From Escherichia coli (GTDB lineage: Bacteria > Pseudomonadota > Gammaproteobacteria > Enterobacterales > Enterobacteriaceae): a DNA stretch of 64,000 nucleotides. Location of the stretch: assembly GCA_902499925.1 (NCBI GenBank), contig GCA_902499925.1_4130.1. One strand, given 5' to 3'. The position numbers and the translations under genes are program-made. This document shows positions 27,323 to 55,880 of this stretch, one piece after another. The first letter of the stretch is position 1. Every line of letters starts with the position of its first letter. Below the pieces are notes generated by a model that worked only from the letters and a program-made list of their open reading frames with translations, did not search any database and had not been told where the DNA came from.

Positions 27323-27823
27323 TTAGGTCACAGCTTTGTATTTCTCCATTGCTTCGGTGATATTCAATACTGCTTGCGGTACGTCACTTTTGTTGTATGC
27401 AGTGTTTAGTTTTTCCATGTTATTGAGAAGACTTAGAAACAATGGAAGTACTTCTGCATTGTCACTGAAGTTACAATCATTGACAGTACTCAATTGAAAT
27501 AACTCACCCGCATCAACATTGAGTGTGTTGTATTCTTTAACAATGTTTTCTTCAGTATTGAAGATGTAGAATACAGTCCCCATGTGGTGTAAGTATACAC
27601 CAGTTTCATTCTGAATATGACATGGGGTGATTACAATTGCTGTGTTATCAATATTATTTACTATTGTCAAACGCAGACTATGTAACCCAAAGATTACAGT
27701 ACAATCCTTTGTACTGTGTTGGATCTGGTCACTAGTAAAGGAAGACCCACTATGATTTTTAGAACCATTTAGTATTTCTTTGATAATTTTAAATGAATTC
27801 TTCATCGAATTAGTTAAAAGCAT
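27323..27823 (-). CDS. FQ-motif paralog (long form), function unknown
   Basis: 166 aa; DAGELFQLSTVND. Confidence 0.7.
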   Translation of the reverse strand: MLLTNSMKNSFKIIKEILNGSKNHSGSSFTSDQIQHSTKDCTVIFGLHSLRLTIVNNIDNTAIVITPCHIQNETGVYLHHMGTVFYIFNTEENIVKEYNTLNVDAGELFQLSTVNDCNFSDNAEVLPLFLSLLNNMEKLNTAYNKSDVPQAVLNITEAMEKYKAVT

Positions 27824-28223
27824 GAACTTTACCTTTAAGTAGATTAATTAATGTTCGCATAGATTCAGTACTGACAGTACCAAAATCAACACCTAAGCAC
27901 TCGTATTGAAAGAACTCAATAGAATCAATTGAGTCCAAAGGAATCTCAACAACCTGATTCCCTATACCAGACATAGTAACATTGCTTTTATTAATCGTCA
28001 AGAAGTTTTTTGAATAAGTATTAAATTTTAGTGAAATCGCGTCGGGGTGCTTTGTAACAATGCAGTACTGGGAACCATACACATATAGTACTTTACTTTC
28101 ACTAAGATCCGTTTTAAAAAAATGAATCCCATTGAAGTATTTCTCATTGGCTCCCATCGCCGCGATTAGTTCATCTGTTGTTGTTAACCTTGTTTCGTTC
28201 TTCGTTAAACTGTTGAAAAGCAT
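27810..28223 (-). CDS. FQ-motif paralog, function unknown
   Basis: 137 aa; SIEFFQYECLG. Confidence 0.6.
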   Translation of the reverse strand: MLFNSLTKNETRLTTTDELIAAMGANEKYFNGIHFFKTDLSESKVLYVYGSQYCIVTKHPDAISLKFNTYSKNFLTINKSNVTMSGIGNQVVEIPLDSIDSIEFFQYECLGVDFGTVSTESMRTLINLLKGKVHAFN

Positions 28224-28644
28224 AGAATACTACCTTAACCATTTGTAGTGTTTCAGACATTACTTCTGATGAAAATTCAACATCATTGAATTTCAGCATA
28301 GTGTTCTGTGTAAAGAAAGTTGCTTCTAAGTCTTCCAGATTGAAGGGTTCATCAAACAAATTAGTACTGAACATGTCAGTCTTCTTCTTGTATGTGAACA
28401 AGAATTTGGAATTATAACGAAGAACTACTTCATCTTTATTGACCAAAATACGTGCAATGTTCTGACGTGCTAATGTTGTAATGTTTAAATTGAACACGTT
28501 CTTGCGTGTTTCAGTGATATCAACAAAATACCCATCTCCCTGATGGATATTACATCGTACATCCAACCCTTTCTGTACTGTATTGAACAGTGCATCTTGA
28601 ATAAAATAATTTGCTGTATCGATGTTTCCTAAAATATCTAACAT
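28171..28644 (-). CDS. FQ-family-like paralog (degenerate motif)
   Basis: 157 aa; LEATFFTQNTML. Confidence 0.5.
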   Translation of the reverse strand: MLDILGNIDTANYFIQDALFNTVQKGLDVRCNIHQGDGYFVDITETRKNVFNLNITTLARQNIARILVNKDEVVLRYNSKFLFTYKKKTDMFSTNLFDEPFNLEDLEATFFTQNTMLKFNDVEFSSEVMSETLQMVKVVFYAFQQFNEERNKVNNNR

Positions 28645-29156
28645 AACTTCTCCTTGATTGCTGTCATATTTAGAAGAAATTCTTCAAGCAATTCCTCTGT
28701 AACATACTCAACATACCAGAATATCACAATATCTTTTGAAAGTCGAGTATTAATAAAAATATCTACTAACTCTTTGTAGTACTTTAAATCATTAAGATCT
28801 TTTAAAATCAATGAGTACTGAAATATTAATTCTTCTGTTAACTTAAATTCTGGATATAGTAGATCATTAAATTCCTTTGACCCAATTAGGACTTTAATTT
28901 CTTTAAAATTATTTGTTATACCACCATTGCTTCCATATAACGCCGCATATTCCATGAATTTGGCTTTGGGGTTCCAGTCCAGAACCGTTTCCCCTTTATA
29001 TGATAAACGATAGAACGCAGAGAACTTGGTTATTTCCCACGGTTGCTTAATGCCTAATTCATGTATATCAATCCCACTGTACAAAATATCAGTGAATATC
29101 TCACCAATCTTCAATAATAATTTAGTACGTGCTAGTACTGTCATAGGTTCAATCAT
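28638..29156 (-). CDS. FQ-motif paralog (long form)
   Basis: 172 aa; TEELIFQYSLIL. Confidence 0.7.
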   Translation of the reverse strand: MIEPMTVLARTKLLLKIGEIFTDILYSGIDIHELGIKQPWEITKFSAFYRLSYKGETVLDWNPKAKFMEYAALYGSNGGITNNFKEIKVLIGSKEFNDLLYPEFKLTEELIFQYSLILKDLNDLKYYKELVDIFINTRLSKDIVIFWYVEYVTEELLEEFLLNMTAIKEKLC

Positions 29157-29569
29157 TATACACCTTCATATTCATCAAGGAAATCTTCGATGATCATTTC
29201 TGCGTCATCCATGTGCATAGCATCAACTTCAACAATGCGAACCTTAGACGTATCCCAAATCATATAGCTAGGAACTGTATCTGGTTCGTAATCGTTTTGG
29301 TACTGAACTGCATCATAGCCGTTAATCTCGCAGTACTCAATCACTCCACGCCATTCATCATCACTGCCCATATCCGTCCATAGAAGCACGTTATCAACAT
29401 CAACTTCTAAGGTATGCAAGTATACTGTATCAGCGTCAACGACGTTTAGTGGGCTTCTCAGTTTGCGTAATGCAGCTTCTAAAGCACTGTGTTTACCTCC
29501 CATATGAAGGCCACCATACGGGATATAAAAGTTATCAATTTTTACAGTACTCGCATGATACAGTTTCAT
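29156..29569 (-). CDS. hypothetical acidic protein (not an FQ-family member)
   Basis: 137 aa; MKLYHASTVKIDNFYIPYGGLHMGGKHS...; no FQ motif. Confidence 0.6.
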   Translation of the reverse strand: MKLYHASTVKIDNFYIPYGGLHMGGKHSALEAALRKLRSPLNVVDADTVYLHTLEVDVDNVLLWTDMGSDDEWRGVIEYCEINGYDAVQYQNDYEPDTVPSYMIWDTSKVRIVEVDAMHMDDAEMIIEDFLDEYEGV

Positions 29570-29578
29570 TATTCATTC

Positions 29579-30163
29579 CTATTTCAGTACTTTGACCAGG
29601 GCTTTAACCGCTGTTTCAAGTTGTGCAAAGTCGTTGATTGTAAGATAATGAATACCCAATGTACTCATTTCTGAATCTATTTTACTATACAAATCGAACA
29701 TGTCAAGTAGATATTGATATGTATATGACTCCGATGACACACATGATTCTTGAAATAGACGTTCTTCCATATCATTTACTACTTCATCATTTACGTCTCG
29801 AATCACACCATCTTTGTATGTGTAGTAAATCTCATCCCATTCATCTGATAAGCGGAATAGTAAAGGTTTACCATTAAACATCTCAAGGTCATATGCATTG
29901 ACTTCACTCAATAACATATCATCAGGATCAGGTGTGAAATCGAATTGAGCGAGTGAAGAACCATCATAATCCTTAAGGAATACACCAATAGCATTCAATT
30001 TAACTTCGCCATAATTGCCATTCTTGAACTTCACACGAATATTAATATCAATGCTTTGAACCGTATCATCATCTTGGAACTGATAATCAATTTTATACTT
30101 TTCCCAAAGTTTTTTAATATCTTTGAAGTACTTAATTTTACTTTCTATTTCTTTAAAGTTCAT
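29579..30163 (-). CDS. FQ-motif paralog (long form)
   Basis: 194 aa; MEERLFQESCVS. Confidence 0.7.
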   Translation of the reverse strand: MNFKEIESKIKYFKDIKKLWEKYKIDYQFQDDDTVQSIDINIRVKFKNGNYGEVKLNAIGVFLKDYDGSSLAQFDFTPDPDDMLLSEVNAYDLEMFNGKPLLFRLSDEWDEIYYTYKDGVIRDVNDEVVNDMEERLFQESCVSSESYTYQYLLDMFDLYSKIDSEMSTLGIHYLTINDFAQLETAVKALVKVLK

Positions 30164-30791
30164 CTGGAACCACCATCTCTTGTATGTTCTTGCATTTTAT
30201 CATTGCACAATTAGTATGTAAAATGATAGAGTACTTATGTAATGATTTAATTTTATAACACTCATTAAGTACTGAAATGATGCCCCATAACTCTTCTACA
30301 TCAATAGTGATAGGTTCACTAGTACTAAGTTGCATTAGTGCTGCTTCCACATCATCTTTATTATTGATTTTGAACTGCATACCATGTTTCAGTATTTTGG
30401 TTTTTGGATTATACTCTGCCATTACATCACCTTCAGGGTAACCCTCGTGTAATAATAATGTTGTATCATAATCTCCACAATTGAAATTAATTTCATCATA
30501 GTCAGGAACACAAATCATTCCTTCACCATATTGATTATCTACTGATTCGATTGTTAAAATACGCTGATGTTCATTACTCAGGATAATAGAATCGTGCCAG
30601 TACTGCGTAGTAAATTTACTACGTTTCTTTTGACAGCACATACTTGACATAGAGCCATACTTTTTATATAGGGACTTCTTGAATGCTATCGCACCAGGAG
30701 CCACCTTAATAACTTCTCGAATTAGGTCAATAGCTTCTTGATAACTTTTTCTCATTTGTCGTACCCATATAAAATATGATCTAGTGTGCAT
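30153..30791 (-). CDS. FQ-family-like paralog (degenerate motif)
   Basis: 212 aa; DVEELWGIISVL at the equivalent position. Confidence 0.5.
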   Translation of the reverse strand: MHTRSYFIWVRQMRKSYQEAIDLIREVIKVAPGAIAFKKSLYKKYGSMSSMCCQKKRSKFTTQYWHDSIILSNEHQRILTIESVDNQYGEGMICVPDYDEINFNCGDYDTTLLLHEGYPEGDVMAEYNPKTKILKHGMQFKINNKDDVEAALMQLSTSEPITIDVEELWGIISVLNECYKIKSLHKYSIILHTNCAMIKCKNIQEMVVPDEL

Positions 30792-31303
30792 TGTACTTCT
30801 TCATGGAAGAACAATGGGTAAATTTGTATCAATTTTTCTTTAAGTTCAAGTGAATGGCATAATTCTAATGCTTTGATACAATCTTCATATTGAACTAAGC
30901 TATGTATTGTACTTAACTGGAAATGTTGTTCTTCAGAGTAAGCTAAATCATATACCAAATTATCATCTAAAAGGTTTGATTTCTTTGAAGGATCAAGTAC
31001 TGTGTTGCTATGACCTACCCAGAAAAAAGCATTGGTGTTCATATTATTACAACCCCAACCTTCCCCCATTTTCTGGTGAATAGCAAAGACACAACTATCA
31101 TAGAGATTAATACCAAGACGTTCTTCGTTGACATAAATCGTAACACCATCGATTGTCATGGTTATTTGGAAACGCATTGAACCTTCACTTCGTGAACGTG
31201 CACAGAAGCCAAGATAACGGTTAATAATTGTATTGATTTTATCTGCCCATCCTTCCACATCTTTGGATGCACATAATTTAAAAAGATCATGACTTTGATT
31301 CAT
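30752..31303 (-). CDS. FQ-motif paralog (long form)
   Basis: 183 aa; SEEQHFQLSTIH. Confidence 0.75.
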   Translation of the reverse strand: MNQSHDLFKLCASKDVEGWADKINTIINRYLGFCARSRSEGSMRFQITMTIDGVTIYVNEERLGINLYDSCVFAIHQKMGEGWGCNNMNTNAFFWVGHSNTVLDPSKKSNLLDDNLVYDLAYSEEQHFQLSTIHSLVQYEDCIKALELCHSLELKEKLIQIYPLFFHEEVQCTLDHILYGYDK

Positions 31304-31314: not shown

Positions 31315-31896
31315 TTAATCAAGCATAAGTGGGATCATCGCCCATATCTTTTTCATAATCATATCTTCAGTAAAAACAAACGTTTTAGGTGCAGTATATG
31401 ATATTGACAACCCAAATGGAAGTACGATTGCATCATCAATTATATTATGAATATCAAACCATGTTTTTACACAATCATATGGTGGAAGTTCATGTATTGT
31501 ACTTAACTGAAAGTATTGTTCTTCACCAAATGTACTGCAATCAATATCACAAATTTTAGTGAATTGATGATTCCATTTAGATATAATACTGTTTTTATTA
31601 TTGAACATATTAGTTCTATGCATGAAACCATTTCTGCTAATATGATTTGATATTGCGTTTTCTTCAATATCATTGCTTATTTTAAAATTCATGTCAAAGT
31701 TGTAGTACGAACTCGACGATTCTTTGAATTTTAAATGAAAATAACGATTGTTATTAATTTCCATTTCAATACAAAACACATCTGAATCAAAACGATTAAA
31801 CTTGTAATCGTTGTCTTCAGGTAGATTCTGTAATTTTTTCATAACACCAAGCATAGGGTGAACTAAACTTCTAATAAAATCATTAGTTATTTTCAT
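31315..31896 (-). CDS. FQ-motif paralog (long form)
   Basis: 193 aa; GEEQYFQLSTIH. Confidence 0.75.
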   Translation of the reverse strand: MKITNDFIRSLVHPMLGVMKKLQNLPEDNDYKFNRFDSDVFCIEMEINNNRYFHLKFKESSSSYYNFDMNFKISNDIEENAISNHISRNGFMHRTNMFNNKNSIISKWNHQFTKICDIDCSTFGEEQYFQLSTIHELPPYDCVKTWFDIHNIIDDAIVLPFGLSISYTAPKTFVFTEDMIMKKIWAMIPLMLD

Positions 31897-32389
31897 AGTA
31901 TTCCTTTAGAACTTTAAATGATTCAACAATACTATCTTGTGTGTAATTAGAACTATATACAATTGCATTTGATTTGATTGACCACAGATATGACATAAAG
32001 GTTATAACACTACTACATGAACTTAATGTATTGTTTTGGAATTCATTTTCTTCAATGTTATCAGTACTGGTATTGATGAATTGGATAGTATCTTGTTTCT
32101 GATTAGACATTGAAACTAAAGTACAATCAGTATAAGGAGTGTACAAAAACGTCTCATTACTAATTGAACTATCATTAGTATATGATGGTTTGGTAATATA
32201 AATCAAACGCATGATATCACGCTCAATACCCGATTTACGACTTTCCACTAAAGAAATCATATCTATATTTTTCATATGATCAACATTGACATGGAACTTT
32301 TTGTTGAGAATTACATCTTTTGGAGAATTTTTATATGAAGATAAGATCTCATACATCTCAACTAATTCTCGTGCATTTAATAAACTCAT
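31883..32389 (-). CDS. FQ-motif paralog (long form)
   Basis: 168 aa; IEENEFQNNTLS. Confidence 0.7.
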   Translation of the reverse strand: MSLLNARELVEMYEILSSYKNSPKDVILNKKFHVNVDHMKNIDMISLVESRKSGIERDIMRLIYITKPSYTNDSSISNETFLYTPYTDCTLVSMSNQKQDTIQFINTSTDNIEENEFQNNTLSSCSSVITFMSYLWSIKSNAIVYSSNYTQDSIVESFKVLKEYYENN

Positions 32390-32814
32390 GTTTTGTCTCT
32401 TAATGAAAGAATATCCTTAGTATAAACTGAAACTGAAATATGATTATATTTCATCATTAATTTATACACATAAGAAGCTAGTACTAAATCGTAAATTAAT
32501 TTAGTATCATACAGTACTCCGTATTGTAAAGCAAGTGAATCAATATCATCTTTACTTTCAATATCCAGAAATGTGCCGAAATATGTAGTACCGTAGAGAT
32601 GAAAAGTGGAATTAATGCAATCAATGCATTCATTGTCCAATAGAGTAGATGCTGATGCCCTCGGTGAATCCCAAATAGTCACTGCGTGTATGCCCTCAAC
32701 GAACAAATCTATCCATATTTTGTGTCGTTGTCTTTTTTGTTTTTTATATTTTTCTGGATTTGAAAGTGTAGTGTCAATTATATCCCATATGTATAAGCAT
32801 TCATCTCTTGTCAT
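32386..32814 (-). CDS. FQ-family-like paralog (degenerate motif)
   Basis: 142 aa; DIDSLALQYGVLY. Confidence 0.5.
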   Translation of the reverse strand: MTRDECLYIWDIIDTTLSNPEKYKKQKRQRHKIWIDLFVEGIHAVTIWDSPRASASTLLDNECIDCINSTFHLYGTTYFGTFLDIESKDDIDSLALQYGVLYDTKLIYDLVLASYVYKLMMKYNHISVSVYTKDILSLRDKT

Positions 32815-33392
32815 TATAGCACCTTATCCATTGCTGCATTTAATGCTTTTAAACGATCAACATTCAAAGTATTGAAGATGTACGTTCCTAAAATGTGGAA
32901 ATCGAACTGGTTCTTTTTGTATGTGTGATAAATTAAACTACAAAAAACAACAGTACTAAGAACCTCTTCCGGTATAACGGTGCTCATCTGAAACAGTTCT
33001 TCATCAACTGTACTTGATTCTGGATTGATAGCTTTTAACTTATACTCTTCATCACCGAATAGTACTTTAATATTATATAAAACACCAACAGTACTAATAT
33101 GAAATGGATGGTGTGAAAAACTTCCATCATCATTAATTTGGATATCGGATCTAATCTCGCACTCTTCATTACTTTTACTATTATTTTTTACAATACAAAT
33201 ATTCCTGGCACCAGAAATAGTAAGAATACCGTGATCGTAATATTCTTTGGACATACATTTAGATGAAAATGACACATCACGGATGAGGTAATGTTTGTTA
33301 ATTTCTTTGGTACTACCAACAATGGATAACATTTTTGTACTGATATCATATAGCTGTTGGTGTCGGGCTGTCATATAACTATAAGCGTTCAT
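32814..33392 (-). CDS. FQ-motif paralog (long form)
   Basis: 192 aa; VDEELFQMSTVI. Confidence 0.75.
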   Translation of the reverse strand: MNAYSYMTARHQQLYDISTKMLSIVGSTKEINKHYLIRDVSFSSKCMSKEYYDHGILTISGARNICIVKNNSKSNEECEIRSDIQINDDGSFSHHPFHISTVGVLYNIKVLFGDEEYKLKAINPESSTVDEELFQMSTVIPEEVLSTVVFCSLIYHTYKKNQFDFHILGTYIFNTLNVDRLKALNAAMDKVL

Positions 33393-33963
33393 ATGTATCC
33401 TTGATGTTTTTGATTGCCGTGTGTAGCTCTTTTAATGTATCGGATTCACAGTTAATGAACTTACTATACATTACCAATTCACCAGTGTCAATAGCTTTTG
33501 CAGTTTCATAGCAAAGCATCATGTACTCAAACTCCTTGAAGTTGTCAAGTACTGATCTCTGGAAAATGTATGCTTCACGAATGTCTTCACTTTGATCTAG
33601 TTCTGGTGGAATTTCCAAATATGTATCATTCTCTACGTCATCAAAATTGGATTCGACAATTCGATTAATATCTTCGTGTAAAGCATTGACAAATATCATG
33701 TTTGGAGTAATGGAACCGATTTGCTCACTATGCCTTGATGTGCGGATATACATTGCCATAGTATCCCATGAACCTTTTTTCGTCGTTCCATAATCGTAAA
33801 CTTTATAAGACTCCAGTACTACTGAACCAAAACGATATGGTGATTTGCATTCAACTTTAAGACGATAATTTCCAATAGGCTCATGTTCAGTAATGTTGTG
33901 CTTTTCAGATAGTTCTGCAATGTCATGCATCAATTTCATAATTTGAATGTGTTCAGCTTGCAT
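33379..33963 (-). CDS. FQ-motif paralog (long form)
   Basis: 194 aa; IREAYIFQRSVL. Confidence 0.7.
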   Translation of the reverse strand: MQAEHIQIMKLMHDIAELSEKHNITEHEPIGNYRLKVECKSPYRFGSVVLESYKVYDYGTTKKGSWDTMAMYIRTSRHSEQIGSITPNMIFVNALHEDINRIVESNFDDVENDTYLEIPPELDQSEDIREAYIFQRSVLDNFKEFEYMMLCYETAKAIDTGELVMYSKFINCESDTLKELHTAIKNIKDTYERL

Positions 33964-34526
33964 TATAAGTCCTCTAATTTAACAGGTACATGTTCATTGA
34001 TGAACGTCTTAAGAGCCAGTACTAGATCTTCTAATTCTTCTGTACTGAATTTTAATATAGTTTTAAAGATTATCAATTCATTTCTTTCTATAATCTTTGG
34101 AATTTCATATGCTAACATAAGATTGCGAACAGTACCAGCGTTGTGTATGAGGTTCGCATTGAATAAAAGTACATCGTACTCGTCTTTTTTAATTTTATAA
34201 TTGTACTCTTCAATTACTTCATGTGTGTATGTATTCTTATAAGCAATTTTATTTTTATGAAATTTATAACCAACAGTAACACTATCATCATAAAATGTAG
34301 AACGATAATCTTGTTTTCTATCGCCGGACGAAATGATGTGTAATGCTGTGTATTTGTCCTCAACATCTAACTCAATGTTTGCATAACTGTTAACAGTTTC
34401 ATTCTTTAGGACGTTAATGTTATATTTCTCATTAACTTTAATGTACTGGCGTGAACCATTATCATCAATGAACTTAAAACAATGCTTTACCAACAATGTG
34501 ATTTCTTTAATTAATTCAGTACTCAT
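33963..34526 (-). CDS. FQ-family-like paralog (degenerate motif)
   Basis: 187 aa; KDEYDVLLFNANLIH; downstream of promoter 34554-34582. Confidence 0.5.
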   Translation of the reverse strand: MSTELIKEITLLVKHCFKFIDDNGSRQYIKVNEKYNINVLKNETVNSYANIELDVEDKYTALHIISSGDRKQDYRSTFYDDSVTVGYKFHKNKIAYKNTYTHEVIEEYNYKIKKDEYDVLLFNANLIHNAGTVRNLMLAYEIPKIIERNELIIFKTILKFSTEELEDLVLALKTFINEHVPVKLEDL

Positions 34527-34553: not shown

Positions 34554-34582
34554 ATTATAACACACCTGAATGCTCATGTAAA
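34554..34582 (-). promoter_or_regulatory. sigma70-like promoter (TTTACA-17-TGtTATAAT)
   Basis: Directly downstream of terminator 34592-34613, upstream of 33963..34526. Confidence 0.6.
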
Positions 34583-34591: not shown

Positions 34592-34613
34592 ACAAAAAGA
34601 CCCATAAGGGTCT
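34592..34613 (-). terminator. rho-independent terminator
   Basis: AGACCC-UUAU-GGGUCU then UUUUGUGUUU, after 34614..35132. Confidence 0.7.
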
Positions 34614-35132
34614 TTATTTTGGTAAAACGCTGTCAATGTACGCTAGAGCCTCATCTCGGAGGTACGTTCCATCTATCGTTATGTAATAGTTCTTAGGGAT
34701 ATCACTACCAATCTTCTCGTAAATTTTCATACATGATATCACATCTTCATCACAAATGGTACTCAATTGAAACTGTACTTCATCAGTTAAAGGTACGATA
34801 TCATGTTTAGATGGGGGGTTGGTATTTTCATTCAAAACAATATCAAACAAATTAGGAGTATTCTTTGACGAAATGTAACGATGTTTACTACGAATTACCA
34901 TTCTCGACAGAGAAATACTGGAACTCCATCTTGGGTCCACATCTTCGTATGTTAACGCAATTAACATTTCATAATAATCTTGGAATTTCATTGATGCATA
35001 ATATGTTTTGTCCTCACCGTACATTCCAAATGATTTGAATTCAATGTCACCTACATTGTGTGTATCACTATCACTATTCACGAATTTTAACAGACTGTTG
35101 ATTAGTCTGATTAGAATATCATCTTTATTCAT
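34614..35132 (-). CDS. FQ-motif paralog (long form)
   Basis: Track 34614..35198; ATG 35132 gives an 8-nt overlap; TDEVQFQLSTIC; terminator follows. Confidence 0.7.
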   Translation of the reverse strand: MNKDDILIRLINSLLKFVNSDSDTHNVGDIEFKSFGMYGEDKTYYASMKFQDYYEMLIALTYEDVDPRWSSSISLSRMVIRSKHRYISSKNTPNLFDIVLNENTNPPSKHDIVPLTDEVQFQLSTICDEDVISCMKIYEKIGSDIPKNYYITIDGTYLRDEALAYIDSVLPK

Positions 35133-46493: not shown

Positions 46494-46495
46494 CA
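46414..46495 (-). repeat. 82-bp direct repeat, copy B
   Basis: 80/82 identical to 45907-45988; forms the 5' part of the truncated paralog. Confidence 0.8.
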
Positions 46496-47649: not shown

Positions 47650-47669
47650 GCACCCTTTAGCACCCTTTA
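47650..47669 (-). repeat. 10-bp perfect tandem duplication (GCACCCTTTA x2 on + strand)
   Basis: Sits at a gene junction; one copy supplies the last codons and stop of 47657..48211, the other the SD-like AGGG for the next ORF. Confidence 0.7.
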
Positions 47670-48211: not shown

Positions 48212-48221
48212 TGTACTTTCC

Positions 48222-48566: not shown

Positions 48567-49081
48567 AATCCTATTTCCTTTAAATCTTCCAAAAATGTTT
48601 CATAATCACTTAAGGAAAAAAAGATATCCGTATCGATGTTCGCATCTAATACATTATACAAATTCTGCATCTGTAACACATCAGGAGCATCAATCAATGA
48701 TTGCTGGAAATAGGCAGCTTCATCTTCCAAAATATCTCTGAATGTTCTCTCTCGTACTCTGTGGTGTACTGAATTGAATATTGATTTCTCATCCTTAAGC
48801 ATTGGTAGGTATCGAATGTACATGTGTTCTCTTAGCTCTGGACTGATGGAACCCCTGAACTGTAACACGTATTCGAAGCACATAGCAACATCCTGAAGGT
48901 AATTGGCACTGTAATTATTGCTGTAAACAATCTTATGACTTCTGAACTCATCATCATTTCTGAACCAATTGTCACCTACTTTGGTGTACTTATGACTAAG
49001 CAATCCACCCTCTAACGCTTTGATGATCTTCAAAATGTTGTGTGCAAATGCATATGATGTATTGTACTTGGCCTGATACAT
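48563..49081 (-). CDS. FQ-motif paralog (long form)
   Basis: Track 48563..49204; ATG 49081 has GAGG 6 nt upstream; EDEAAYFQQSLI. Confidence 0.7.
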   Translation of the reverse strand: MYQAKYNTSYAFAHNILKIIKALEGGLLSHKYTKVGDNWFRNDDEFRSHKIVYSNNYSANYLQDVAMCFEYVLQFRGSISPELREHMYIRYLPMLKDEKSIFNSVHHRVRERTFRDILEDEAAYFQQSLIDAPDVLQMQNLYNVLDANIDTDIFFSLSDYETFLEDLKEIGL

Positions 49082-49097
49082 GTGTGCCTCATCTGCC

Positions 49098-49292
49098 TCA
49101 TTTGGCGTTAAAATATTCACTGAAATGATTATAACACAAAAGCACCACGATGTTAAGCACTCTGTTGTCAAAATCATCTTGTGATGCAGGATGCAAGGAC
49201 GCATTGATGTTAAAATTCACTATATCATTGTGGAATTGGTATGTGAACAAATCAAACTTCGTATGCCTTTGTTTGATATCATCGGCGGTCAT
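49098..49292 (-). CDS. hypothetical small protein
   Basis: 64-aa ORF. Confidence 0.45.
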   Translation of the reverse strand: MTADDIKQRHTKFDLFTYQFHNDIVNFNINASLHPASQDDFDNRVLNIVVLLCYNHFSEYFNAK

Positions 49293-49293: not shown

Positions 49294-49902
49294 TTATATA
49301 TTCAACCCTTTAACAATGGAAATAAATTCTTTGTATACATTTTCAGGTAAAGCTCTACTACCATAAAGAACACTAAATTCAGGTAACATATCCGAAATCT
49401 CTTTCGCTAAATTTATTTCATCCCTGAACATTTGCACAGGCATGATATCCTGTACCAATGATAACTGAAAGAAAAATGATTCAATATCTTCATGCACCTC
49501 TGAATTTAAATAAATCTCTTCTGGAAACTGGTCTGTACTGTAATAATAAAATACGTCAATTCTTTTTTCATTATTTTGTACAAGAGGTAAATTTCTTTCG
49601 TCTCTCTTATTAATATTTGTTTTCCATGACTCAATGTTATTCGGAACCCAAAACTCATAAGGTGTTTTCTCTCCTGAAATATTATCCAGCTTCAATCCAT
49701 AATATTCACCTTCGCCGTACTTCTGCTTCAAAACAATACCTGTACTACTGATGTTTACAATGTACGTATCAACAATCCCCTCTGCGGTAAAAGGAATATT
49801 TAACTCTGAACCTTCAGGGTACTTAGCATTGAATGCATCTAATGCTTTACTAAGCACTGGAATTGCACTTGTACTGTACTTCATTAATTGATCTATGTTC
49901 AT
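49294..49902 (-). CDS. FQ-motif paralog (long form)
   Basis: 202 aa; DIESFFFQLSLV. Confidence 0.7.
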   Translation of the reverse strand: MNIDQLMKYSTSAIPVLSKALDAFNAKYPEGSELNIPFTAEGIVDTYIVNISSTGIVLKQKYGEGEYYGLKLDNISGEKTPYEFWVPNNIESWKTNINKRDERNLPLVQNNEKRIDVFYYYSTDQFPEEIYLNSEVHEDIESFFFQLSLVQDIMPVQMFRDEINLAKEISDMLPEFSVLYGSRALPENVYKEFISIVKGLNI

Positions 49903-50447
49903 TTTAATGCCCCTGTAATCATACTGAAATTTGAACGATACATATCGTACACTGTACTTTCTTTCTTGTGCACAATGAAATCATAAAGATCGACGAATGC
50001 AGGAATAATAATCTTGAATGATTTATTCTTGTACGTCCCAAACTCAACGGTGCTCAATTTTGCAACGAGCATAGCAACAAAGATTTCTTCTGGACTATGC
50101 AATGTACTGTACTGAAAATAATCCTCTGCACTTATTTCACCCATTGCACTAATATCTTGTACTTGTAATGAAATTTTAAGATAATAATAAGAAAAATCAT
50201 TCTCTGATTTGTTTTGTATTTTGTATTGGTCTATGGGTACATCTCTCATGAACCATAAACGGTCCTGACCATAAAAAGGAATGATTGAATTTGGGGAACC
50301 CAAAAAAACTTCTTCTCTATCAATATCCTTTAACTCAATTTGCATACTGGATGAATTGGCAATAATTAATTCATTAAAAATGTAATGAACCTTGTGTACC
50401 ATCTCTTGTACTGAATTGAAATCATCTGGTATTTTAAAATTTTCCAT
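49899..50447 (-). CDS. FQ-motif paralog (long form)
   Basis: Track 49899..50483; ATG 50447 has AAGGAG 6 nt upstream and lies downstream of promoter 50474-50502; SAEDYFQYSTLH. Confidence 0.75.
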   Translation of the reverse strand: MENFKIPDDFNSVQEMVHKVHYIFNELIIANSSSMQIELKDIDREEVFLGSPNSIIPFYGQDRLWFMRDVPIDQYKIQNKSENDFSYYYLKISLQVQDISAMGEISAEDYFQYSTLHSPEEIFVAMLVAKLSTVEFGTYKNKSFKIIIPAFVDLYDFIVHKKESTVYDMYRSNFSMITGALK

Positions 50448-50473
50448 AGGTATCTCCTTAAAAATGATTACAC

Positions 50474-50502
50474 ATTGTACCATGCATTTGTACTGGTGTC
50501 AA
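50474..50502 (-). promoter_or_regulatory. sigma70-like promoter (TTGACA-17-TACAAT)
   Basis: Intergenic 50448-50519, upstream of 49899..50447. Confidence 0.65.
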
Positions 50503-50519
50503 ACAAAAAAGCCCATATC

Positions 50520-51017
50520 TTACGATACAGGCATGTTTATTTGAATTTCATTGTACAAATCATCAATATATAGACATGAAAACGATAAACTTTCTTTAAC
50601 TATATTGTTGTGATAAAGCATTTTAAACACTATATAGAAAAATAAATCAATATCATCATGTACTAAATTCTGCTGGAACCACCACTCTTCTGTTAAATCT
50701 TGTGCATTAAAATCATCAGGAACTTCAATTGACGACATATCAACATCTTCTTTGTACTCAAACCACATGTCGTCATTCGGATAACGTTCATGTTTTTCTG
50801 GGTAACAATTGCTGGGATTAAATGCTAAAATATAAAATGTCGTCGCAGAATGTTCTTTATTAAAAAATGAATTATTCCACACCTGATACCTTTCACCAAC
50901 ATCAATCTCTTTTGATACTGATGTTATTGCACATAATGTACGATATATTGTTTCTATTTTGTGAACAAATTTAAAGGCTGCATCTAAACTGAACTCTAAA
51001 TCAGACATGCGGTGCAT
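50520..51017 (-). CDS. FQ-motif paralog (long form)
   Basis: 165 aa (alternative ATG at 51008); TEEWWFQQNLVH. Confidence 0.7.
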   Translation of the reverse strand: MHRMSDLEFSLDAAFKFVHKIETIYRTLCAITSVSKEIDVGERYQVWNNSFFNKEHSATTFYILAFNPSNCYPEKHERYPNDDMWFEYKEDVDMSSIEVPDDFNAQDLTEEWWFQQNLVHDDIDLFFYIVFKMLYHNNIVKESLSFSCLYIDDLYNEIQINMPVS

Positions 51018-51337
51018 AAAATTATCTCAACTAAAATAAGAACGGTATTGAATTCGAGGCAACCTTTGATACCTTGATTGTACATGTACTTTGCTACTAC
51101 ATATTTCTGTACTAAATTATAATTATTAAATTCCTCAAAATTGTAATTTAGAATGAAATTTGTACTCAAAAATAACTTATGCATCTCTAATGCACTCTGA
51201 TAATATTTGTACAACTCACTGATATCAATACTTTGTAAATCACTTTGTTCATATGTATGATAAGGAATGGCGTCAATTTCAATATTATTAAACCATTCTC
51301 TTAACTTATTAATATCAAATGTATTATTCAGCTTCAT
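50996..51337 (-). CDS. FQ-family-like paralog (degenerate motif)
   Basis: 113 aa; NFEEFNNYNLVQ. Confidence 0.45.
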   Translation of the reverse strand: MKLNNTFDINKLREWFNNIEIDAIPYHTYEQSDLQSIDISELYKYYQSALEMHKLFLSTNFILNYNFEEFNNYNLVQKYVVAKYMYNQGIKGCLEFNTVLILVEIILCTACLI

Positions 51338-51890
51338 AACTCAATACCTCCATTAAGCACTCATAAACACCATCAATCGCATAAGCACAAAAACTGAAAT
51401 TAATTTTGTTATTCTTGTGTAATGGACTATTGTATACTGTACTCATTATGACATTATAAAATAACAAACGCACTGGTACAAGCATTGAACCTTGGAAAAA
51501 TTCTTCCTCTGATTTATATGTATTGTACTCTATTGCTTTGTTCGTTTCTGTATCATATTTTACCATTACTAACGGGGCATTTTTATTATACCATGCGTAC
51601 TCTAAATCATTCTTTCCAATAACAGCACCAGGGGCAAAATCCAAAAGACTAATAACACTACGGGCATTTGGGGTATCAGGTGTATTGAATCGTTTATCAA
51701 AATGTCTCGTGCACGCAATATATGTATTGTACTTCGATGGAATAATACCAATACATTTGTGGATGTGACGCTTGTAATCTTTCTGTGCATTATATAAGGC
51801 TGCAACAATACAAGCTAACTTTTGTCCCATAAGGATTGCATTAGCGTAGGTGTACTGAATTTCATTGTACTCACTGTACGTCGATGTCAT
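51324..51890 (-). CDS. FQ-motif paralog (long form)
   Basis: 188 aa; SEEEFFQGSMLV. Confidence 0.75.
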   Translation of the reverse strand: MTSTYSEYNEIQYTYANAILMGQKLACIVAALYNAQKDYKRHIHKCIGIIPSKYNTYIACTRHFDKRFNTPDTPNARSVISLLDFAPGAVIGKNDLEYAWYNKNAPLVMVKYDTETNKAIEYNTYKSEEEFFQGSMLVPVRLLFYNVIMSTVYNSPLHKNNKINFSFCAYAIDGVYECLMEVLSYEAE

Positions 51891-52182
51891 AATACGCTCC
51901 TACCTCATAATCTTTCTTGCTTTGGAATTCATTAACGACTTTCTGTATATTTCTTAATGTTACCATGTCATGTCCGTACATGTCAACCACCAATTGCATT
52001 TGGAAAAATTCTTCTTCAGATAATGTATTAAAATCTATAAAATAATCCGTAACAACCTGTGCGTCTAAATTTGCCATGTACCATTGATTGGTATCGACCT
52101 CTTTAACCAAATTCCATGCATCTGAATCGGATTCTAATTCTACATATATTAATGTTAATGTATAAAGCATTTTATACTTCAT
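51871..52182 (-). CDS. FQ-motif paralog (short form)
   Basis: 103 aa; SEEEFFQMQLVV...NIQKVV. Confidence 0.7.
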   Translation of the reverse strand: MKYKMLYTLTLIYVELESDSDAWNLVKEVDTNQWYMANLDAQVVTDYFIDFNTLSEEEFFQMQLVVDMYGHDMVTLRNIQKVVNEFQSKKDYEVGAYYDIDVQ

Positions 52183-52732
52183 AACTGTATCCTTGCATTA
52201 AAAGATCATAAGCAATATCAACTAATTCTAAACGAATGAAAAATTTTAAATTATCTTTCAATGGATTCAAATGCATTGTACTAAACAACATAAGATACTT
52301 CATTTGATTTGTATTGTATATTAGGGATGTCTGAAATACTTCTGCTTCATTGTAAGGATCAATGAATTTTATACCTTCTTCACTGTAATCCGTTTTGGAA
52401 TTCTGATATATAAAATAATCATCACCAGCATTATACCACAAATAACCTTCAAAACTAGAATCAAATTCTGAATTTTCATTTCGCATTAAAGGTGATACTG
52501 AAATTGGATTTGAACCAACTGTTGCACAAACCTCAAGGAAAGCATCTTCACTTCCCTTAACTTCCTCTTTGATTTTATCATTGTACTGACCTGCAAAACC
52601 AGCTTTTACTTCCAAATATAAACTACTACCAACTTTATTAATTCTTAAAAGGGAACTCTGTACTGTATTCGCATTATTCAGCACAAACACTATTGTGCAA
52701 ATCTTATGTACCAATAACTGAATATCATTCAT
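52172..52732 (-). CDS. FQ-motif paralog (long form)
   Basis: 186 aa; NEAEVFQTSLIY. Confidence 0.7.
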   Translation of the reverse strand: MNDIQLLVHKICTIVFVLNNANTVQSSLLRINKVGSSLYLEVKAGFAGQYNDKIKEEVKGSEDAFLEVCATVGSNPISVSPLMRNENSEFDSSFEGYLWYNAGDDYFIYQNSKTDYSEEGIKFIDPYNEAEVFQTSLIYNTNQMKYLMLFSTMHLNPLKDNLKFFIRLELVDIAYDLLMQGYSYEV

Positions 52733-52733: not shown

Positions 52734-53063
52734 TTATACCCTTGTGCATTTAAGCACTGTAACTAAACCTTTTGCGTTCTTGAAATGCATTAACGATAAT
52801 GATGCATCAACGTATTGTAATGATACAATTACATCTTCTGATGTGTTCTTGAATAAAAATTCCTGTACTGAATTCTCACCAAAATAAATGTACTTTGTGG
52901 ACTCAATTTGCAAATACGGAATTTCTGTACTATGTAAAAAGATATCAATTTTATCATTGTTTTGTAATCTGCAATCAAATTGATATACTTCATAATCAGC
53001 GGCCTGTACTGTATTAGAGAACATTGATAAAATAAATGTTAGAGCTAAAATAATTTTATTCAT
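52734..53063 (-). CDS. secreted/periplasmic protein with Sec signal peptide
   Basis: 109 aa; MNKIILALTFILSMFSNTVQA/ADYE gives n-h-c regions and an AxA-type site (VQA); no lipobox Cys. Confidence 0.6.
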   Translation of the reverse strand: MNKIILALTFILSMFSNTVQAADYEVYQFDCRLQNNDKIDIFLHSTEIPYLQIESTKYIYFGENSVQEFLFKNTSEDVIVSLQYVDASLSLMHFKNAKGLVTVLKCTRV

Positions 53064-54031: not shown

Positions 54032-54343
54032 TTATATGTCAATTTCAATGATCCTCCCTGACATACCTTGTATTAGCTTATCATACATATCGAGCATCAC
54101 TTTTTGAATACTAATTAATACTGGCATCGTGCAAATATCAATGTCGTATATTAAGCTGTACTGGAATAATTCCTCTTCCTGCATTTGTACTAAATTAGGT
54201 AAAAGATAATTGTCTGCCTCTTCATCCTGGTACTTGAAATGCATAACGCCATCCTTTTTGTACAAAAGAATGTCAATATCACCTAACTCTTCTGCATAAC
54301 CAAAAATACATATACTCGATGTTTTTGCTATATTAAATTTCAT
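54032..54343 (-). CDS. FQ-motif paralog (short form)
   Basis: 103 aa; QEEELFQYSLIY...SIQKVM. Confidence 0.75.
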   Translation of the reverse strand: MKFNIAKTSSICIFGYAEELGDIDILLYKKDGVMHFKYQDEEADNYLLPNLVQMQEEELFQYSLIYDIDICTMPVLISIQKVMLDMYDKLIQGMSGRIIEIDI

Positions 54344-54352: not shown

Positions 54353-54676
54353 TTATATGTGGAATTCACATACGTGTTGAACAAAATTCTTTGGAAGATG
54401 ACAATGTGTAATCATCTGCTTTTGTACTTCCTTCATATCTTCGAATGTAAATCCTAAAGAATCATCATGTACTAACAAGTACTGAAACTCTTCTTCTTCA
54501 GAGATAGAACATAAATTCGGTACTGAAATTGTTTTTGTTTTTCTTGCACCTAATTTCCAATGAAAAGAATTATTGCATTTTCTGTACTCAAATATCTTCA
54601 ACCCAGAACCTGTATTAAAATCAGCTACTACAATGTAACATGAATTCTTACGTACAATACAATTGAACTTACGCAT
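54353..54676 (-). CDS. FQ-motif paralog (short form)
   Basis: Track 54353..54703; ATG 54676 has GGTGGAG upstream and a TAATG junction; SEEEEFQYLLVH. Confidence 0.7.
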   Translation of the reverse strand: MRKFNCIVRKNSCYIVVADFNTGSGLKIFEYRKCNNSFHWKLGARKTKTISVPNLCSISEEEEFQYLLVHDDSLGFTFEDMKEVQKQMITHCHLPKNFVQHVCEFHI

Positions 54677-54921
54677 TATCTCCACCTCTCTCCGTCTGTA
54701 CAAGAGTACTGGTACGTTGTCGTTAGGGTAGGAACCATGTTTGTAATGGGCATATTGTTAACAATAACCGTAACAGGCATAAGAATCGTCTCTTCTCTAC
54801 TCTGTCCTGTCCTTGTGCAATTCATCTTCTGCATTTCATCTGAATCCATGAAATACAATACAAATGGTGCAATCCCAAGAACAATACACAAGACGATAAG
54901 GAAATTTAAAAAATTTAACAT
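54676..54921 (-). CDS. small membrane protein (N-terminal TM helix)
   Basis: 81 aa; MLNFLNFLIVLCIVLGIAPFVLYF; GAGGG RBS; directly downstream of promoter 54961-54989. Confidence 0.6.
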   Translation of the reverse strand: MLNFLNFLIVLCIVLGIAPFVLYFMDSDEMQKMNCTRTGQSREETILMPVTVIVNNMPITNMVPTLTTTYQYSCTDGERWR

Positions 54922-54960
54922 AATTTTTACCCTCTATTTGAACGCTCAAAAAGTACAGGT

Positions 54961-54989
54961 ACTATAGCACTAAAGAAAAGTACTGTCAA
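54961..54989 (-). promoter_or_regulatory. sigma70-like promoter (TTGACA-17-TATAGT)
   Basis: The minus strand reads TTGACAGTACTTTTCTTTAGTGCTATAGT; upstream of membrane protein gene 54676..54921. Confidence 0.65.
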
Positions 54990-54990
54990 G

Positions 54991-55356
54991 CTAGTATTGC
55001 ACTGTTCTAATGAAAGTACCTGAACTCATGGATTTAAGCTTATGAACCTCTTCCTGTATACCCTTGAGCAACTCTAAAGGCATTGGTACATCATGTACTA
55101 AGCTGTACTGAAAGTATTCTTCTTCAGATAAAGTACTAACATCTGGGACGCCAATTTTAGTTAGATAATCTTGATGTGTTGACCAATAAATTATATCTTC
55201 AGTACAATTGTACTCCCCATATACTGAACAATATTGATGAATATCTTTCCTGTACCCTTGAGCAATAAAGAACTTATCTACGGCATTAATAGAACTCACT
55301 TCGATTGTTACAGTACTTGAGCTTGTTTTTCCTTTATTATGCATATTAATCCCCAA
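54991..55356 (-). CDS. FQ-motif paralog (short form)
   Basis: 121 aa; SEEEYFQYSLVH. Confidence 0.75.
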   Translation of the reverse strand: MGINMHNKGKTSSSTVTIEVSSINAVDKFFIAQGYRKDIHQYCSVYGEYNCTEDIIYWSTHQDYLTKIGVPDVSTLSEEEYFQYSLVHDVPMPLELLKGIQEEVHKLKSMSSGTFIRTVQY

Positions 55357-55532
55357 ATTAGATATCGAACACTATCAGCTTGATAGTTAGTTCCTACTGT
55401 GTGTTTTAATATTAACTCATCTTTCAGTACTGAACATTCTGCATTAGATATAGGAAGTGAATTAATTCTTTGAATTTCTGGTCGCAACATACCGCGAATC
55501 TTGCGATAATCTTCGTATGATAATCTTTTCAT
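55308..55532 (-). CDS. GTNYQ-family small paralog
   Basis: 74 aa; HTVGTNYQADSV. Confidence 0.65.
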   Translation of the reverse strand: MKRLSYEDYRKIRGMLRPEIQRINSLPISNAECSVLKDELILKHTVGTNYQADSVRYLIWGLICIIKEKQAQVL

Positions 55533-55535
55533 GGT

Positions 55536-55880
55536 TTAATACTCAATAATGTGTTCTTCATAATCACCATTAGGCTCCTGTTTAGCTTCTTTCATTAGTA
55601 CTATCATCTTATGTACTAATGGCATAGGAAACTCTAAATCCCATACTAATGATTCCTGAAAGTATTCCTCTGGTGATAAAGTACTTAAATCTTTAATATC
55701 AACGTGCTTGTATATTTTATTTTCGTAATTAACAAATGATATATATAAATCATTAATATAAGAATCATACGTAATTGTGAATGGCTTACCCTTGTAGTCC
55801 ATTACATCTCTACATAGACTACTTTTGATATATATATGTTCATAGGATTTATATACCTTGAGTTGTATATTAGTTTTCAT
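55536..55880 (-). CDS. FQ-motif paralog (short form)
   Basis: 114 aa; SPEEYFQESLVW. Confidence 0.75.
   Translation of the reverse strand: MKTNIQLKVYKSYEHIYIKSSLCRDVMDYKGKPFTITYDSYINDLYISFVNYENKIYKHVDIKDLSTLSPEEYFQESLVWDLEFPMPLVHKMIVLMKEAKQEPNGDYEEHIIEY

Follow-up and report, generated by a model that had tools for sequence, protein, structure and literature searches.

A tandem array of diverged paralogous genes sharing an acidic-FQ-S motif in an Asteriusvirus-type jumbo coliphage genome

A single interval encodes a large family of small proteins

A 64,000-nt stretch of DNA filed under Escherichia coli (assembly GCA_902499925.1, contig GCA_902499925.1_4130.1), hereafter the window, carries at positions 27323-55880 a head-to-tail array of small genes whose products share an acidic-FQ-S motif, and which we refer to as the FQ family. 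The window has a G+C content of ~32% and every sizeable open reading frame (ORF) lies on its minus strand; of the 155 non-nested ORFs that made up our gene set, 68 (≥50 amino acids, aa) fall within the interval, all of them co-directional, and 87 lie outside. Over positions 36000-46000 the window shares 98.1% identity with Escherichia phages WPEC3 and fEgEco12 and ~84% with the type phage 121Q, and the same genomes also match positions 1-12000; it is part of an Asteriusvirus-type jumbo coliphage. GenBank genes that match the interval are all annotated as 'hypothetical protein'.

When all minus-strand ORFs were scanned with a regular expression, the acidic-FQ-S block turned up in 27323-55880 and nearly nowhere else. 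FQx[ST] occurs in 36 of the 68 array ORFs, against a mean of 2.3 and a maximum of 7 in per-protein shuffles and 3 of the 87 ORFs outside the array, while [DE][DE]xxFQ occurs in 29 array ORFs versus 0.4 in shuffles. A hidden Markov model (HMM) was seeded with 36 ORFs, using their motif region, and when iterated until it converged it recovered 44 members inside the interval (Table 1); 14972-15661 emerged as a weak outlier. When the 44 proteins, which range from 103 to 213 aa, were aligned over their full length with MAFFT, F and Q were the sole invariant columns at a mean column identity of ~10-11%. This bears out the proposal of an earlier note on this DNA that the interval encodes a single protein family with a positionally homologous motif. 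The note had counted 46 clean copies, where the strict expression gives 36 and the profile 44, although its total of ~53 is nearly right against the ~51-52 found here. Its statement that nearly every ORF is a copy holds insofar as the family dominates the interval, but is overstated, as ~16 ORFs are unrelated, among them one signal-peptide protein and two members of a second family. Likewise, the distance from the motif Phe to the C-terminus has a median of 51 residues, in line with the 40-60 residues proposed, but ranges from 40 to 72.

The Phe-Gln pair is encoded by TTTCAG in 18 members, TTCCAG in 10, TTTCAA in nine and TTCCAA in seven. Because all four codon combinations are in use, conservation acts on the protein and not on the DNA, as the note had held, and a DNA- or RNA-level repeat was set aside. 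Pairwise phmmer comparison resolved a 16-member cluster in which short forms prevail, alongside two proteins of 183 and 193 aa, and an 11-member cluster of long forms. A continuation reading LV[FW]DKKY...IQxxMK is seen in one alignment (A2), and F[YF]LD[LY][DE] in the long subcluster only, so that both the alignments and the clustering support the division into two flavours. The members are acidic and hydrophilic, with a median isoelectric point (pI) of 4.9 and a net charge of -9 versus 5.5 and -3 for the other genes of the window; some are basic (pI 8.5-8.9). An enzymatic family was set aside, since F and Q alone are invariant and form no catalytic set, as was a DNA-mimic anti-restriction family of the Ocr/ArdA type, given the median pI together with the basic members and the lack of a fold match. 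A secreted or membrane family was also set aside, the members being hydrophilic and a signal peptide occurring only in the unrelated ORF 52734-53063. This minus-strand non-member, which lies inside the array, begins with MNKIILALTFILSMFSNTVQA, a typical signal peptide, and may be exported, in contrast to the cytoplasmic proteins encoded around it.

Homologues are found in RaK2/121Q-like jumbo phages

A tblastn search with one long member gave a weak match in a Klebsiella jumbo phage. A profile built from the window alone then detected 28 members (E < 1e-3) in one 40-kb locus of this phage, all of which carry [ST]EExxFQxS, and two more lie upstream, giving ~30 copies in a genome of 347 kb. The same profile detected 44 members in the 121Q locus and 47 in that of fEgEco12. 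An HMMER search of 1.84 billion cluster representatives returned 177 matches at E ≤ 1e-3, and the best 150 of these 177 are 65-196 aa long with no fusions to other domains. The motif is present in 180 of the 181 database sequences compared, which combine these matches with those of a long-form homologue search, with Phe kept in 179 of 180 and Gln in 180 of 180; the consensus reads L-[ST]-E-E-x-[YL]-F-Q-x-S-[TL]-[VI]-[YW]-D, and the residue following Q is variable (Y, L, Q, N, E, M or G). The sequences come from Asteriusvirus, the more distant coliphages JNE01, A4 and EJP2, Salmonella phages Munch and SE_PL, the RaK2-like Klebsiella phage and metagenomes. Homologue searches with a long-form alignment and with an 84-sequence alignment of distant members returned Asteriusvirus-type proteins only, and a fold search of BFVD returned uncharacterised proteins of PBECO4, slurp01 and RaK2 with weak matches in Yersinia Eneladusvirus phages. 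By these searches, the family is confined to enterobacterial RaK2/121Q-like jumbo phages. Many members are filed as proteins of 'Escherichia coli' or 'Salmonella enterica' on contigs of ~350 kb, which are whole jumbo-phage genomes in bacterial isolate assemblies; in line with this, Asteriusvirus has been reported to be over-represented among 'persistent' virulent phages (bioRxiv 10.1101/2024.12.31.630880).

Scanning all 44 members against Pfam-A gave no match above the gathering threshold, only isolated chance-level matches (best E 0.003), and the anti-phage defence HMMs of PADLOC-DB gave four single chance-level matches (E ≥ 0.001). No member matches a sequence in the PDB. Nine of ten representatives match PHROGs clusters (E values of 1e-51 to 1e-118), and weaker matches run across the clusters. 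The clusters concerned (phrog_9317, 12674, 13866, 15629, 28549, 28680, 32681, 34636, 35776 and 19795) are all labelled 'unknown function'. The same sequences were therefore already public, but split into at least 10 unlinked clusters in which the motif, the shared domain and the copy number are unrecorded. The genome papers of RaK2, CBB, phAPEC6, fEgEco12, Sharanji and UE-S1 and a jumbo-phage overview leave the family undescribed and offer generic remarks on paralogues, such as that ~10% of RaK2 proteins are paralogues (RaK2 genome paper); going by their titles and abstracts, none of the papers mentioning Asteriusvirus appears to treat it. The family thus belongs to no characterised domain in Pfam, PADLOC or the PDB, and the note's remark that it did not recognise the family was fair, as we found no published description.

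Each copy is under purifying selection

Reciprocal-best, length-matched and syntenic orthologues in 121Q exist for 39 of the 44 members. Across these pairs the median amino acid identity is 73%, with nonsynonymous (dN) and synonymous (dS) divergences of 0.15 and 0.59 and a dN/dS of 0.25 (maximum 0.76), compared with a median identity of 87% and a dN/dS of 0.14 for 29 flanking genes. Pooled by segment, dN/dS is lowest in the 13-residue motif (0.13), with values of 0.28 for the part before it and 0.24 for the part after it. The N-terminal parts, which cannot be aligned between paralogues, are 72% identical between orthologues, and each copy is kept for something specific. Taken together, each copy is under purifying selection. 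The earlier note had taken the size of the expansion to point to diversifying selection; with no whole-gene ratio above the maximum given and both the N- and C-terminal parts purifying, ongoing diversifying selection is unsupported at the whole-gene level.

Approximately 10 reciprocal-best pairs link the E. coli and Klebsiella phages and run collinearly along both arrays (27323/30263, 28638/28809, 31315/26028, 32814/23269, 35125/22129 and 37439/19523 among them), and most of the expansion therefore predates the split of the two phage lineages. The groups at 42919-44738 and 44922-46966 are recent local duplications. Diversification of the family is thus ancient, with a few local duplications added later. 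We also considered whether the array reflects neutral or selfish amplification by unequal recombination that left most copies idle, for which the recent duplications, ~7 decayed copies and the five members lacking a reciprocal-best 121Q orthologue could be cited. The low dN/dS over the 39 orthologue pairs, the collinear retention in the Klebsiella phage, the intact frames and the conserved promoters largely refute this explanation, and we regard it as highly improbable. The interval is a viral lineage-specific multigene family: tandem paralogues of one domain, in one lineage, under selection.

The motif is predicted to form a capped helix within a compact domain

AlphaFold2 was run on paralogue alignments for one long (43340-43828) and one short (45630-45986) member. 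The long-form model (predicted local distance difference test, pLDDT, 87.3; predicted template modelling score, pTM, 0.83) comprises an N-terminal helix, a seven-strand β-region, a motif helix at residues 109-115 (EEYYFQN), a helix at 121-135, a strand and a final helix, and its pLDDT peaks at 97 over residues 101-120, which span the motif. The short-form model (pLDDT 87.2, pTM 0.83) comprises five strands, a motif helix at 65-74, a helix at 83-99 and a strand. Each protein is thus predicted to be one compact domain with a β-meander sheet followed by helices, and this fold is predicted not to be represented among solved structures. That the two forms share the whole fold is suggested by the order of their predicted secondary structure rather than by superposition.

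Directly before the motif helix stand S108 (long model) and D64 (short model), and this position, -5, is S, T, D or N in 32 of the 44 window members and S, T or D in 149 of 180 database members. Ser, Thr, Asp and Asn are the residues that classically cap helix N-termini, and the first turn of a helix favours Glu; Richardson and Richardson reportedly set out N-cap preferences in 1988, and Harper and Rose are said to have described the helix 'capping box' in 1993. The block [ST/D]-E-E-x-[YLF]-F-Q-x-S-[TL]-[VI] is accordingly modelled as the first helix after the sheet, with the -5 residue as N-cap and the two Glu in the first turn, and these features would therefore explain the acidic part of the motif structurally. 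We infer from the models that the Phe packs into the core with the Gln beside it, a shared contact or a buried hydrogen bond being the likely role of the Gln. Read in this way, the motif would be a structural keystone of the shared scaffold, not a detachable tag.

The earlier note had instead proposed a C-terminal handle fused to a variable effector or target-binding N-terminal domain. In a related scheme, the acidic-FQ-S helix docks one host hub or phage factor and the members act as adaptors that bring cargoes or targets to it. Several observations fit such a handle: F and Q are invariant in 179-180 of ~180 sequences despite the low mean column identity, the motif has the lowest dN/dS of the three segments, and hhalign aligned the short and long profiles over just 21 columns around the motif (probability 87.6%, E = 3.5e-6). 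The models argue against it, as both forms are single compact domains, and in the long model the motif is a short, textbook N-capped helix in the most confident region, following a sheet that the N-terminal part itself builds. The N-terminal parts contain no recognisable domain of their own, and no candidate partner was identified. We therefore consider a common-partner handle, the main rival to the reading favoured below, unlikely.

The motif could alternatively mark a processing or targeting signal, such as a protease site or a capsid-targeting tag. Cleavage could conceivably fall just ahead of the second Glu, at an L-x-E site of the kind cut by T4-type prohead proteases, or at a Q with G/S after it, resembling the TEV/3C site ExxYxQ(G/S). 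Positions -6 to -4 read [LMIV]-x-E in ~22 of the 44 members, EEMYFQG (37439-37921) and EEGYFQG (41723-42169) are exact tobacco etch virus (TEV)-type sites, and the phage encodes a ClpP-type protease (1769-2464), near which related records annotate a head maturation protease. The site would, however, fall within a helix of the best-folded region and not within a linker or at a terminus, the C-terminus being 40-72 residues away; the position that follows Q is not conserved, L/I is missing from half of the members, and the virion proteome of a related phage is empty over the corresponding genes (see below). A processing signal is therefore remote as an explanation. A TEV/3C-type substrate was also rejected because the P1' residue is variable and the segment helical, with the search for a cognate protease covering the window, and a degron for the phage ClpP was set aside given that the motif is a predicted internal helix. 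The site of the TEV/potyviral NIa protease is ENLYFQ(G/S), to which E-E-x-Y-F-Q of the motif corresponds from P6 to P1, and most other members match ExxYFQ. This likeness is almost certainly a coincidence, although it matters in practice if members are expressed with TEV-cleavable tags.

The array lies near a terminal repeat and carries σ70-type promoters

The window is the reverse complement of the fEgEco12 record, in which the FQ array occupies ~27.6-56.3 kb on the plus strand. Experimentally supported direct terminal repeats of 20,993 bp have been reported for fEgEco12 (PMC13070987). From the left genome end, the order is terminal repeat, a 27-copy small-ORF family, FQ array, Dam-like methyltransferase, T4-type RNA ligase 1 (Rnl1) and PNKP, followed by ligase, phosphatases and ClpP, the whole series being transcribed away from that end, so that the FQ array lies within the first ~60 kb inside the left terminal repeat.

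The genes are tightly packed into units, in line with the coupled genes and internal promoters of the note: adjacent ORFs overlap at 49 of the 67 junctions and are separated by ≤25 nt at a further 10 (59/67 together), counts that use longest-ORF starts and may exaggerate the overlaps. The four σ70-like promoters that the note had listed are near-consensus, with extended -10 elements and matches of 11-12 of 12, and they sit in the rare intergenic gaps on the coding strand (Table 1). Since the number of promoter-like matches overall is not above that in shuffles, the evidence for these promoters lies in their placement and in the conservation of their hexamers in 121Q and fEgEco12, where the flanking sequence has changed. 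Terminator-like hairpins lie directly upstream of two of them. Further near-consensus σ70-type promoters are found upstream of the small-ORF family at 63471-63444 (12/12), 63024-62996, 63165-63137 and 61649-61622. They surround the estimated inner boundary of the terminal repeat (~62,600 in the window), consistent with the start of an early transcription region. In CBB, a region with RpoD-like promoters beside the terminal repeat has been proposed as an early, host-takeover region (PMC5259590). The promoters and the position by the terminal repeat therefore suggest that the array is most likely transcribed by host RNA polymerase at the start of infection. In the related phage phAPEC6, none of the 62 proteins of the published virion proteome falls between gp347 and gp549, a range that includes the family member gp442c, and the array genes probably encode early, non-structural proteins.

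These data also bear on whether the family has a phage-internal role, forming oligomeric assemblies, chaperones or regulators, for instance in a replication compartment or in fibre assembly, rather than targeting the host. The stable, core-like retention of copies across the genus and into a sister lineage would suit such a role, as would the scaffold common to all copies and the second, 27-copy family that travels along and is interleaved in the Klebsiella phage. The terminal-repeat neighbourhood and the σ70-type promoters, however, suit early genes better than assembly genes, the gene-number range of the array is empty in the virion proteome, and the sequences give no sign of coiled coils or repeats. 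A phage-internal role thus seems improbable to us.

Degenerate copies, an outlying member and neighbouring genes

In addition to the 44 members, ~7 non-member ORFs have a decayed motif by eye, mostly at the expected distance from the C-terminus (e.g. LMQLST, LALQYG, ARFQYE and MFTNDI). One of these, 48222-48566, is a probable 45th member, with E values of 5.5e-5 and 5.5e-4 with an enlarged profile and a further profile (A3), neither of which was trained on it; the enlarged, 255-sequence profile revealed no other hidden members among the remaining array ORFs. The outlier 14972-15661 is also a probable member (E = 6.3e-5 with the A3 profile, likewise trained without it). Its position relative to Rnl1 and PNKP recurs on a metagenomic contig, where seven FQ-family members lie between the Dam gene and the Rnl1-PNKP pair. 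In T4, Rnl1 and PNKP are a tRNA-repair pair that acts against PrrC-type anticodon nucleases, which are known counter-defence functions. At 1769-2464, the ClpP-family protease subunit (Pfam CLP_protease, E = 1e-41) has two calcineurin-like phosphoesterases and an ATP-dependent DNA ligase nearby.

The second paralogue family consists of 27 back-to-back small ORFs of 63-92 aa at 55870-61621 on the minus strand, with a conserved LGTNYQE block in which T, Q and one L are invariant, and its products are mostly basic, at a median pI of 8.9. Its PHROGs match is phrog_4148 ('unknown function'), Pfam and the PDB gave none, and the idea that it is a truncated FQ family was rejected (hhalign probability 0.2%). 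Stray copies lie inside the FQ array at 40828-41019 and 55308-55532, and the Klebsiella phage has 13 copies interspersed among its FQ genes, with no separate block. A third paralogue group of four ORFs (89-103 aa; 18849-20252, minus strand) is connected by phmmer links at E < 1e-4, and the two of its members scanned against Pfam gave no match.

Table 1. Members of the FQ family and other features of the window. Upper coordinates of genes are longest-ORF starts and may lie too far upstream; identity is amino acid identity to the 121Q orthologue; Kp, coordinates of the reciprocal-best match in the Klebsiella jumbo phage locus.
Feature	Coordinates	Strand	Length (aa)	Motif or elements	Identity	dN/dS	Remarks
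Long	27323-27823	-	166	DAGELFQLSTV	67%	0.17	F109-Q110; Kp 30263-30760
Long	28638-29156	-	172	TEELIFQYSLI	76%	0.19	Kp 28809-29360
Long	29579-30163	-	194	MEERLFQESCV	72%	0.15	
Long	30752-31303	-	183	SEEQHFQLSTI	78%	0.16	
Long	31315-31896	-	193	GEEQYFQLSTI	87%	0.26	phrog_34636
Long, S to N	31883-32389	-	168	IEENEFQNNTL	83%	0.32	
Long	32814-33392	-	192	VDEELFQMSTV	91%	0.18	
Long	33379-33963	-	194	REAYIFQRSVL	61%	0.20	
Long	34614-35198	-	194	TDEVQFQLSTI	87%	0.10	phrog_35776
Long, S to M	35125-35682	-	185	LESVMFQHMLI	70%		Kp 22129-22737
Long	36205-36699	-	164	SEESYFQNSLI	63%	0.30	
Short	36687-37100	-	137	TPDELFQYSLV	88%	0.16	
Short	37084-37446	-	120	SEEELFQESTV	75%	0.38	
Long	37439-37921	-	160	TEEMYFQGSCI	79%	0.18	phrog_12674; Kp 19523-20014
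Long	37918-38397	-	159	SEEEFFQYSTL	58%	0.20	
Long	38457-39047	-	196	NEENYFQQSLL	72%		phrog_28549
Short	38998-39336	-	112	DRGELFQESLV	69%		
Short	39326-39685	-	119	QEDELFQESLV	80%	0.07	
Long	40284-40880	-	198	TEENIFQNSLM	54%		phrog_32681
Long	41193-41726	-	177	FEEQCFQLSCT	73%		
Long	41723-42169	-	148	TEEGYFQGSTV	73%	0.38	
Long	42135-42608	-	157	SEDAYFQYSTI			no reciprocal-best orthologue in 121Q locus
Short	42608-42922	-	104	HETFLFQESLV	69%		
Long	42919-43362	-	147	SEEYYFQNSTL			phmmer score 104 to 43340-43828; duplicate group 42919-44738
Long, modelled	43340-43828	-	162	SEEYYFQNSTV	94%	0.05	F113-Q114; phrog_9317
Long	43831-44271	-	146	TEEYYFQQSLI	86%		
Long, S to N	44268-44738	-	156	SEEFYFQQNTI	87%		
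Short	44922-45338	-	138	GEAEIFQESLI			phmmer score 99 to 45630-45986; duplicate group 44922-46966
Short	45268-45633	-	121	DDVELFQASLV	69%		
Short, modelled	45630-45986	-	118	DAAELFQESLV			F69-Q70; phrog_15629
Short	45986-46354	-	122	SEEEFFQESTV	98%		
Short core with N-terminal extension, S to A	46493-46966	-	157	DEAALFQEALV	70%	0.76	family maximum of dN/dS
Long, S to K	47657-48283	-	208	SEEMLFQYKTV	60%		
Long	48563-49204	-	213	DEAAYFQQSLI			phrog_28680
Long	49294-49902	-	202	IESFFFQLSLV	58%		
Long	49899-50483	-	194	SAEDYFQYSTL			no reciprocal-best orthologue in 121Q locus
Long, S to N	50520-51017	-	165	TEEWWFQQNLV	81%		
Long	51324-51890	-	188	SEEEFFQGSML	92%		
Short, S to Q	51871-52182	-	103	SEEEFFQMQLV	59%		
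Long	52172-52732	-	186	NEAEVFQTSLI	53%		phrog_19795
Short	54032-54343	-	103	QEEELFQYSLI	84%		
Short, S to L	54353-54703	-	116	SEEEEFQYLLV			Kp 12489-12824
Short	54991-55356	-	121	SEEEYFQYSLV			
Short	55536-55880	-	114	SPEEYFQESLV	83%		first family gene in transcription direction
Probable 45th member, degenerate, S to E	48222-48566	-	114	DDAARFQYETA			
Candidate degenerate, F to M	30153-30791	-	212	VEAALMQLSTS			~60 residues from C-terminus; by eye, below profile detection
Candidate degenerate, F to L, S to G	32386-32814	-	142	IDSLALQYGVLYD			~47 residues from C-terminus; by eye only
Candidate degenerate, Q to N	33963-34526	-	187	DEYDVLLFNANLI			phmmer link to 33379-33963 at E < 1e-4
Candidate degenerate, Q to T	39691-40293	-	200	DEDAMFTNDIT			~64 residues from C-terminus; by eye only
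Candidate degenerate	27810-28223	-	137	DSIEFFQYECL			just ~33 residues from C-terminus; by eye only
Weak candidate degenerate	28171-28644	-	157	LEATFFTQNTML			by eye only
Probable outlying member outside array	14972-15661	-	229	SEEEHFQLMMM			directly upstream of Rnl1 gene, PNKP further downstream
σ70-type promoter	38431-38460	-		TTGACA-18-TATAAT			12/12, TG; both hexamers identical in 121Q and fEgEco12, upstream flank differs
σ70-type promoter	34554-34582	-		TTTACA-17-TATAAT			11/12, TG; 121Q keeps -35, its -10 is TATACT
σ70-type promoter	50474-50502	-		TTGACA-17-TACAAT			11/12, TG; kept in fEgEco12, rearranged in 121Q
σ70-type promoter	54961-54989	-		TTGACA-17-TATAGT			11/12, TG; only 30-nt core aligns with 121Q
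Terminator-like hairpin	34596-34615	-		8-bp stem then T run			directly upstream of promoter at 34582
Terminator-like hairpin	50511-50532	-		9-bp stem then TTTTTTGTTT			directly upstream of, and partly overlapping, promoter at 50502
PNKP kinase-phosphatase gene	11813-12745	as array					
T4-type Rnl1 gene	13568-14710	as array					
Cytidyltransferase-like ORF	21470-22003	as array					upstream of Rnl1 and PNKP
Dam-like methyltransferase	22000-22524	as array					upstream of Rnl1 and PNKP

Discussion

What is new here is the unifying motif, the shared domain and the copy number, the sequences themselves having been known as unlinked database entries. The closest precedent in a jumbo phage is the ~35-copy zinc-ribbon expansion of Bacillus phage G, which was called 'unprecedented' (Iyer et al. 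2021, PMC7824862). It is likewise a lineage-specific expansion of one small domain to tens of copies, whereas the FQ domain is predicted to be α/β without metal ligands, exists in more copies (44 plus ~7) and across several genera, and gives no hint of DNA binding. Phages SPO1, T5 and T4 carry small early host-takeover genes with strong host-type promoters at or next to the genome end, and these blocks, for the most part without an assigned function, include host shut-off and counter-defence proteins; their genes are unrelated to one another, whereas the FQ array consists of ~50 copies of one domain. Arrays of SUKH/Imm-type poly-immunity proteins, which Zhang, Iyer and Aravind reportedly described in 2011, are likewise tandem sets of small, diversified α+β proteins, each thought to neutralise a different toxin, and some are said to have been recruited by viruses. 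Among eukaryotic viruses, the MGF110/360/505 families of African swine fever virus (ASFV) and the Bcl-2-like and ankyrin families of poxviruses are early, non-structural sets of tandem diverged paralogues near a genome end, in which one fold with varied surfaces serves host range and immune evasion. The FQ array resembles them in its tandem diverged paralogues near the genome end and its single scaffold, but shares no sequence or fold kinship with them, varies much less in copy number between isolates, and has a function proposed here where theirs is demonstrated.

In light of these comparisons, we tentatively favour the view, to which we give slightly less than an even chance, that the array encodes a battery of early binders of different host targets built on one diversified scaffold. 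One scaffold, stabilised by the N-capped FQ helix, would have been diversified on its sheet, loops and terminal helices to yield ~50 non-redundant intracellular binders, each engaging a different host target in a host-takeover, counter-defence or toxin-neutralising role. The binders would be deployed at the start of infection from host σ70-type promoters, in units split by terminator-promoter pairs, and the array would be to phages what the terminal multigene families are to large eukaryotic DNA viruses. A host-takeover or anti-defence arsenal, as the earlier note had suggested, is plausible. We are more doubtful of the bolder version, in which a novel α/β fold, secured by the invariant N-capped Phe-Gln helix, has been diversified into ~50 germline-encoded early binders that each neutralise a different defence system, toxin or housekeeping hub.

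Several points weigh against the battery of early binders. No experiment or homology ties any member to a target, and the proposed function comes from context. The early timing draws on promoter consensus, the burial of F and Q on helix position and pLDDT, and for proteins this small a single virion proteome that lacks them counts for little. Between the two forms, profiles align over the motif columns only, and the invariance of Phe-Gln in ~180 divergent sequences exceeds that of most purely structural positions and could mark an interaction site. Turnover is also low, with 39 of the 44 copies kept in 121Q, collinear copies in the Klebsiella phage and whole-gene dN/dS below 1, a stability that differs from the rapid gain and loss usual in anti-defence islands.

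Asteriusvirus and RaK2-like jumbo phages are under development for therapy, yet >80% of their genes lack an assigned function. The FQ family accounts for ~8% of the phage genes (44-52 of ~600-670) and ~28 kb of DNA, and together with its 27-copy neighbour it fills most of the presumed early region. Larger than the phage G case and shared across genera, it is among the largest gene-family expansions seen in a bacterial virus, and the finding that its members share one domain makes one testable problem of ~50 'hypothetical proteins'. Were the copies to bind distinct host targets, the family would offer a rich set of host-takeover or counter-defence factors. Should the reading as a repertoire of binders prove true, the array would be the largest dedicated counter-defence and host-takeover arsenal known in any phage, with dozens of new inhibitors, and poxviruses and African swine fever virus, with their terminal multigene families, would have a parallel among bacterial viruses.

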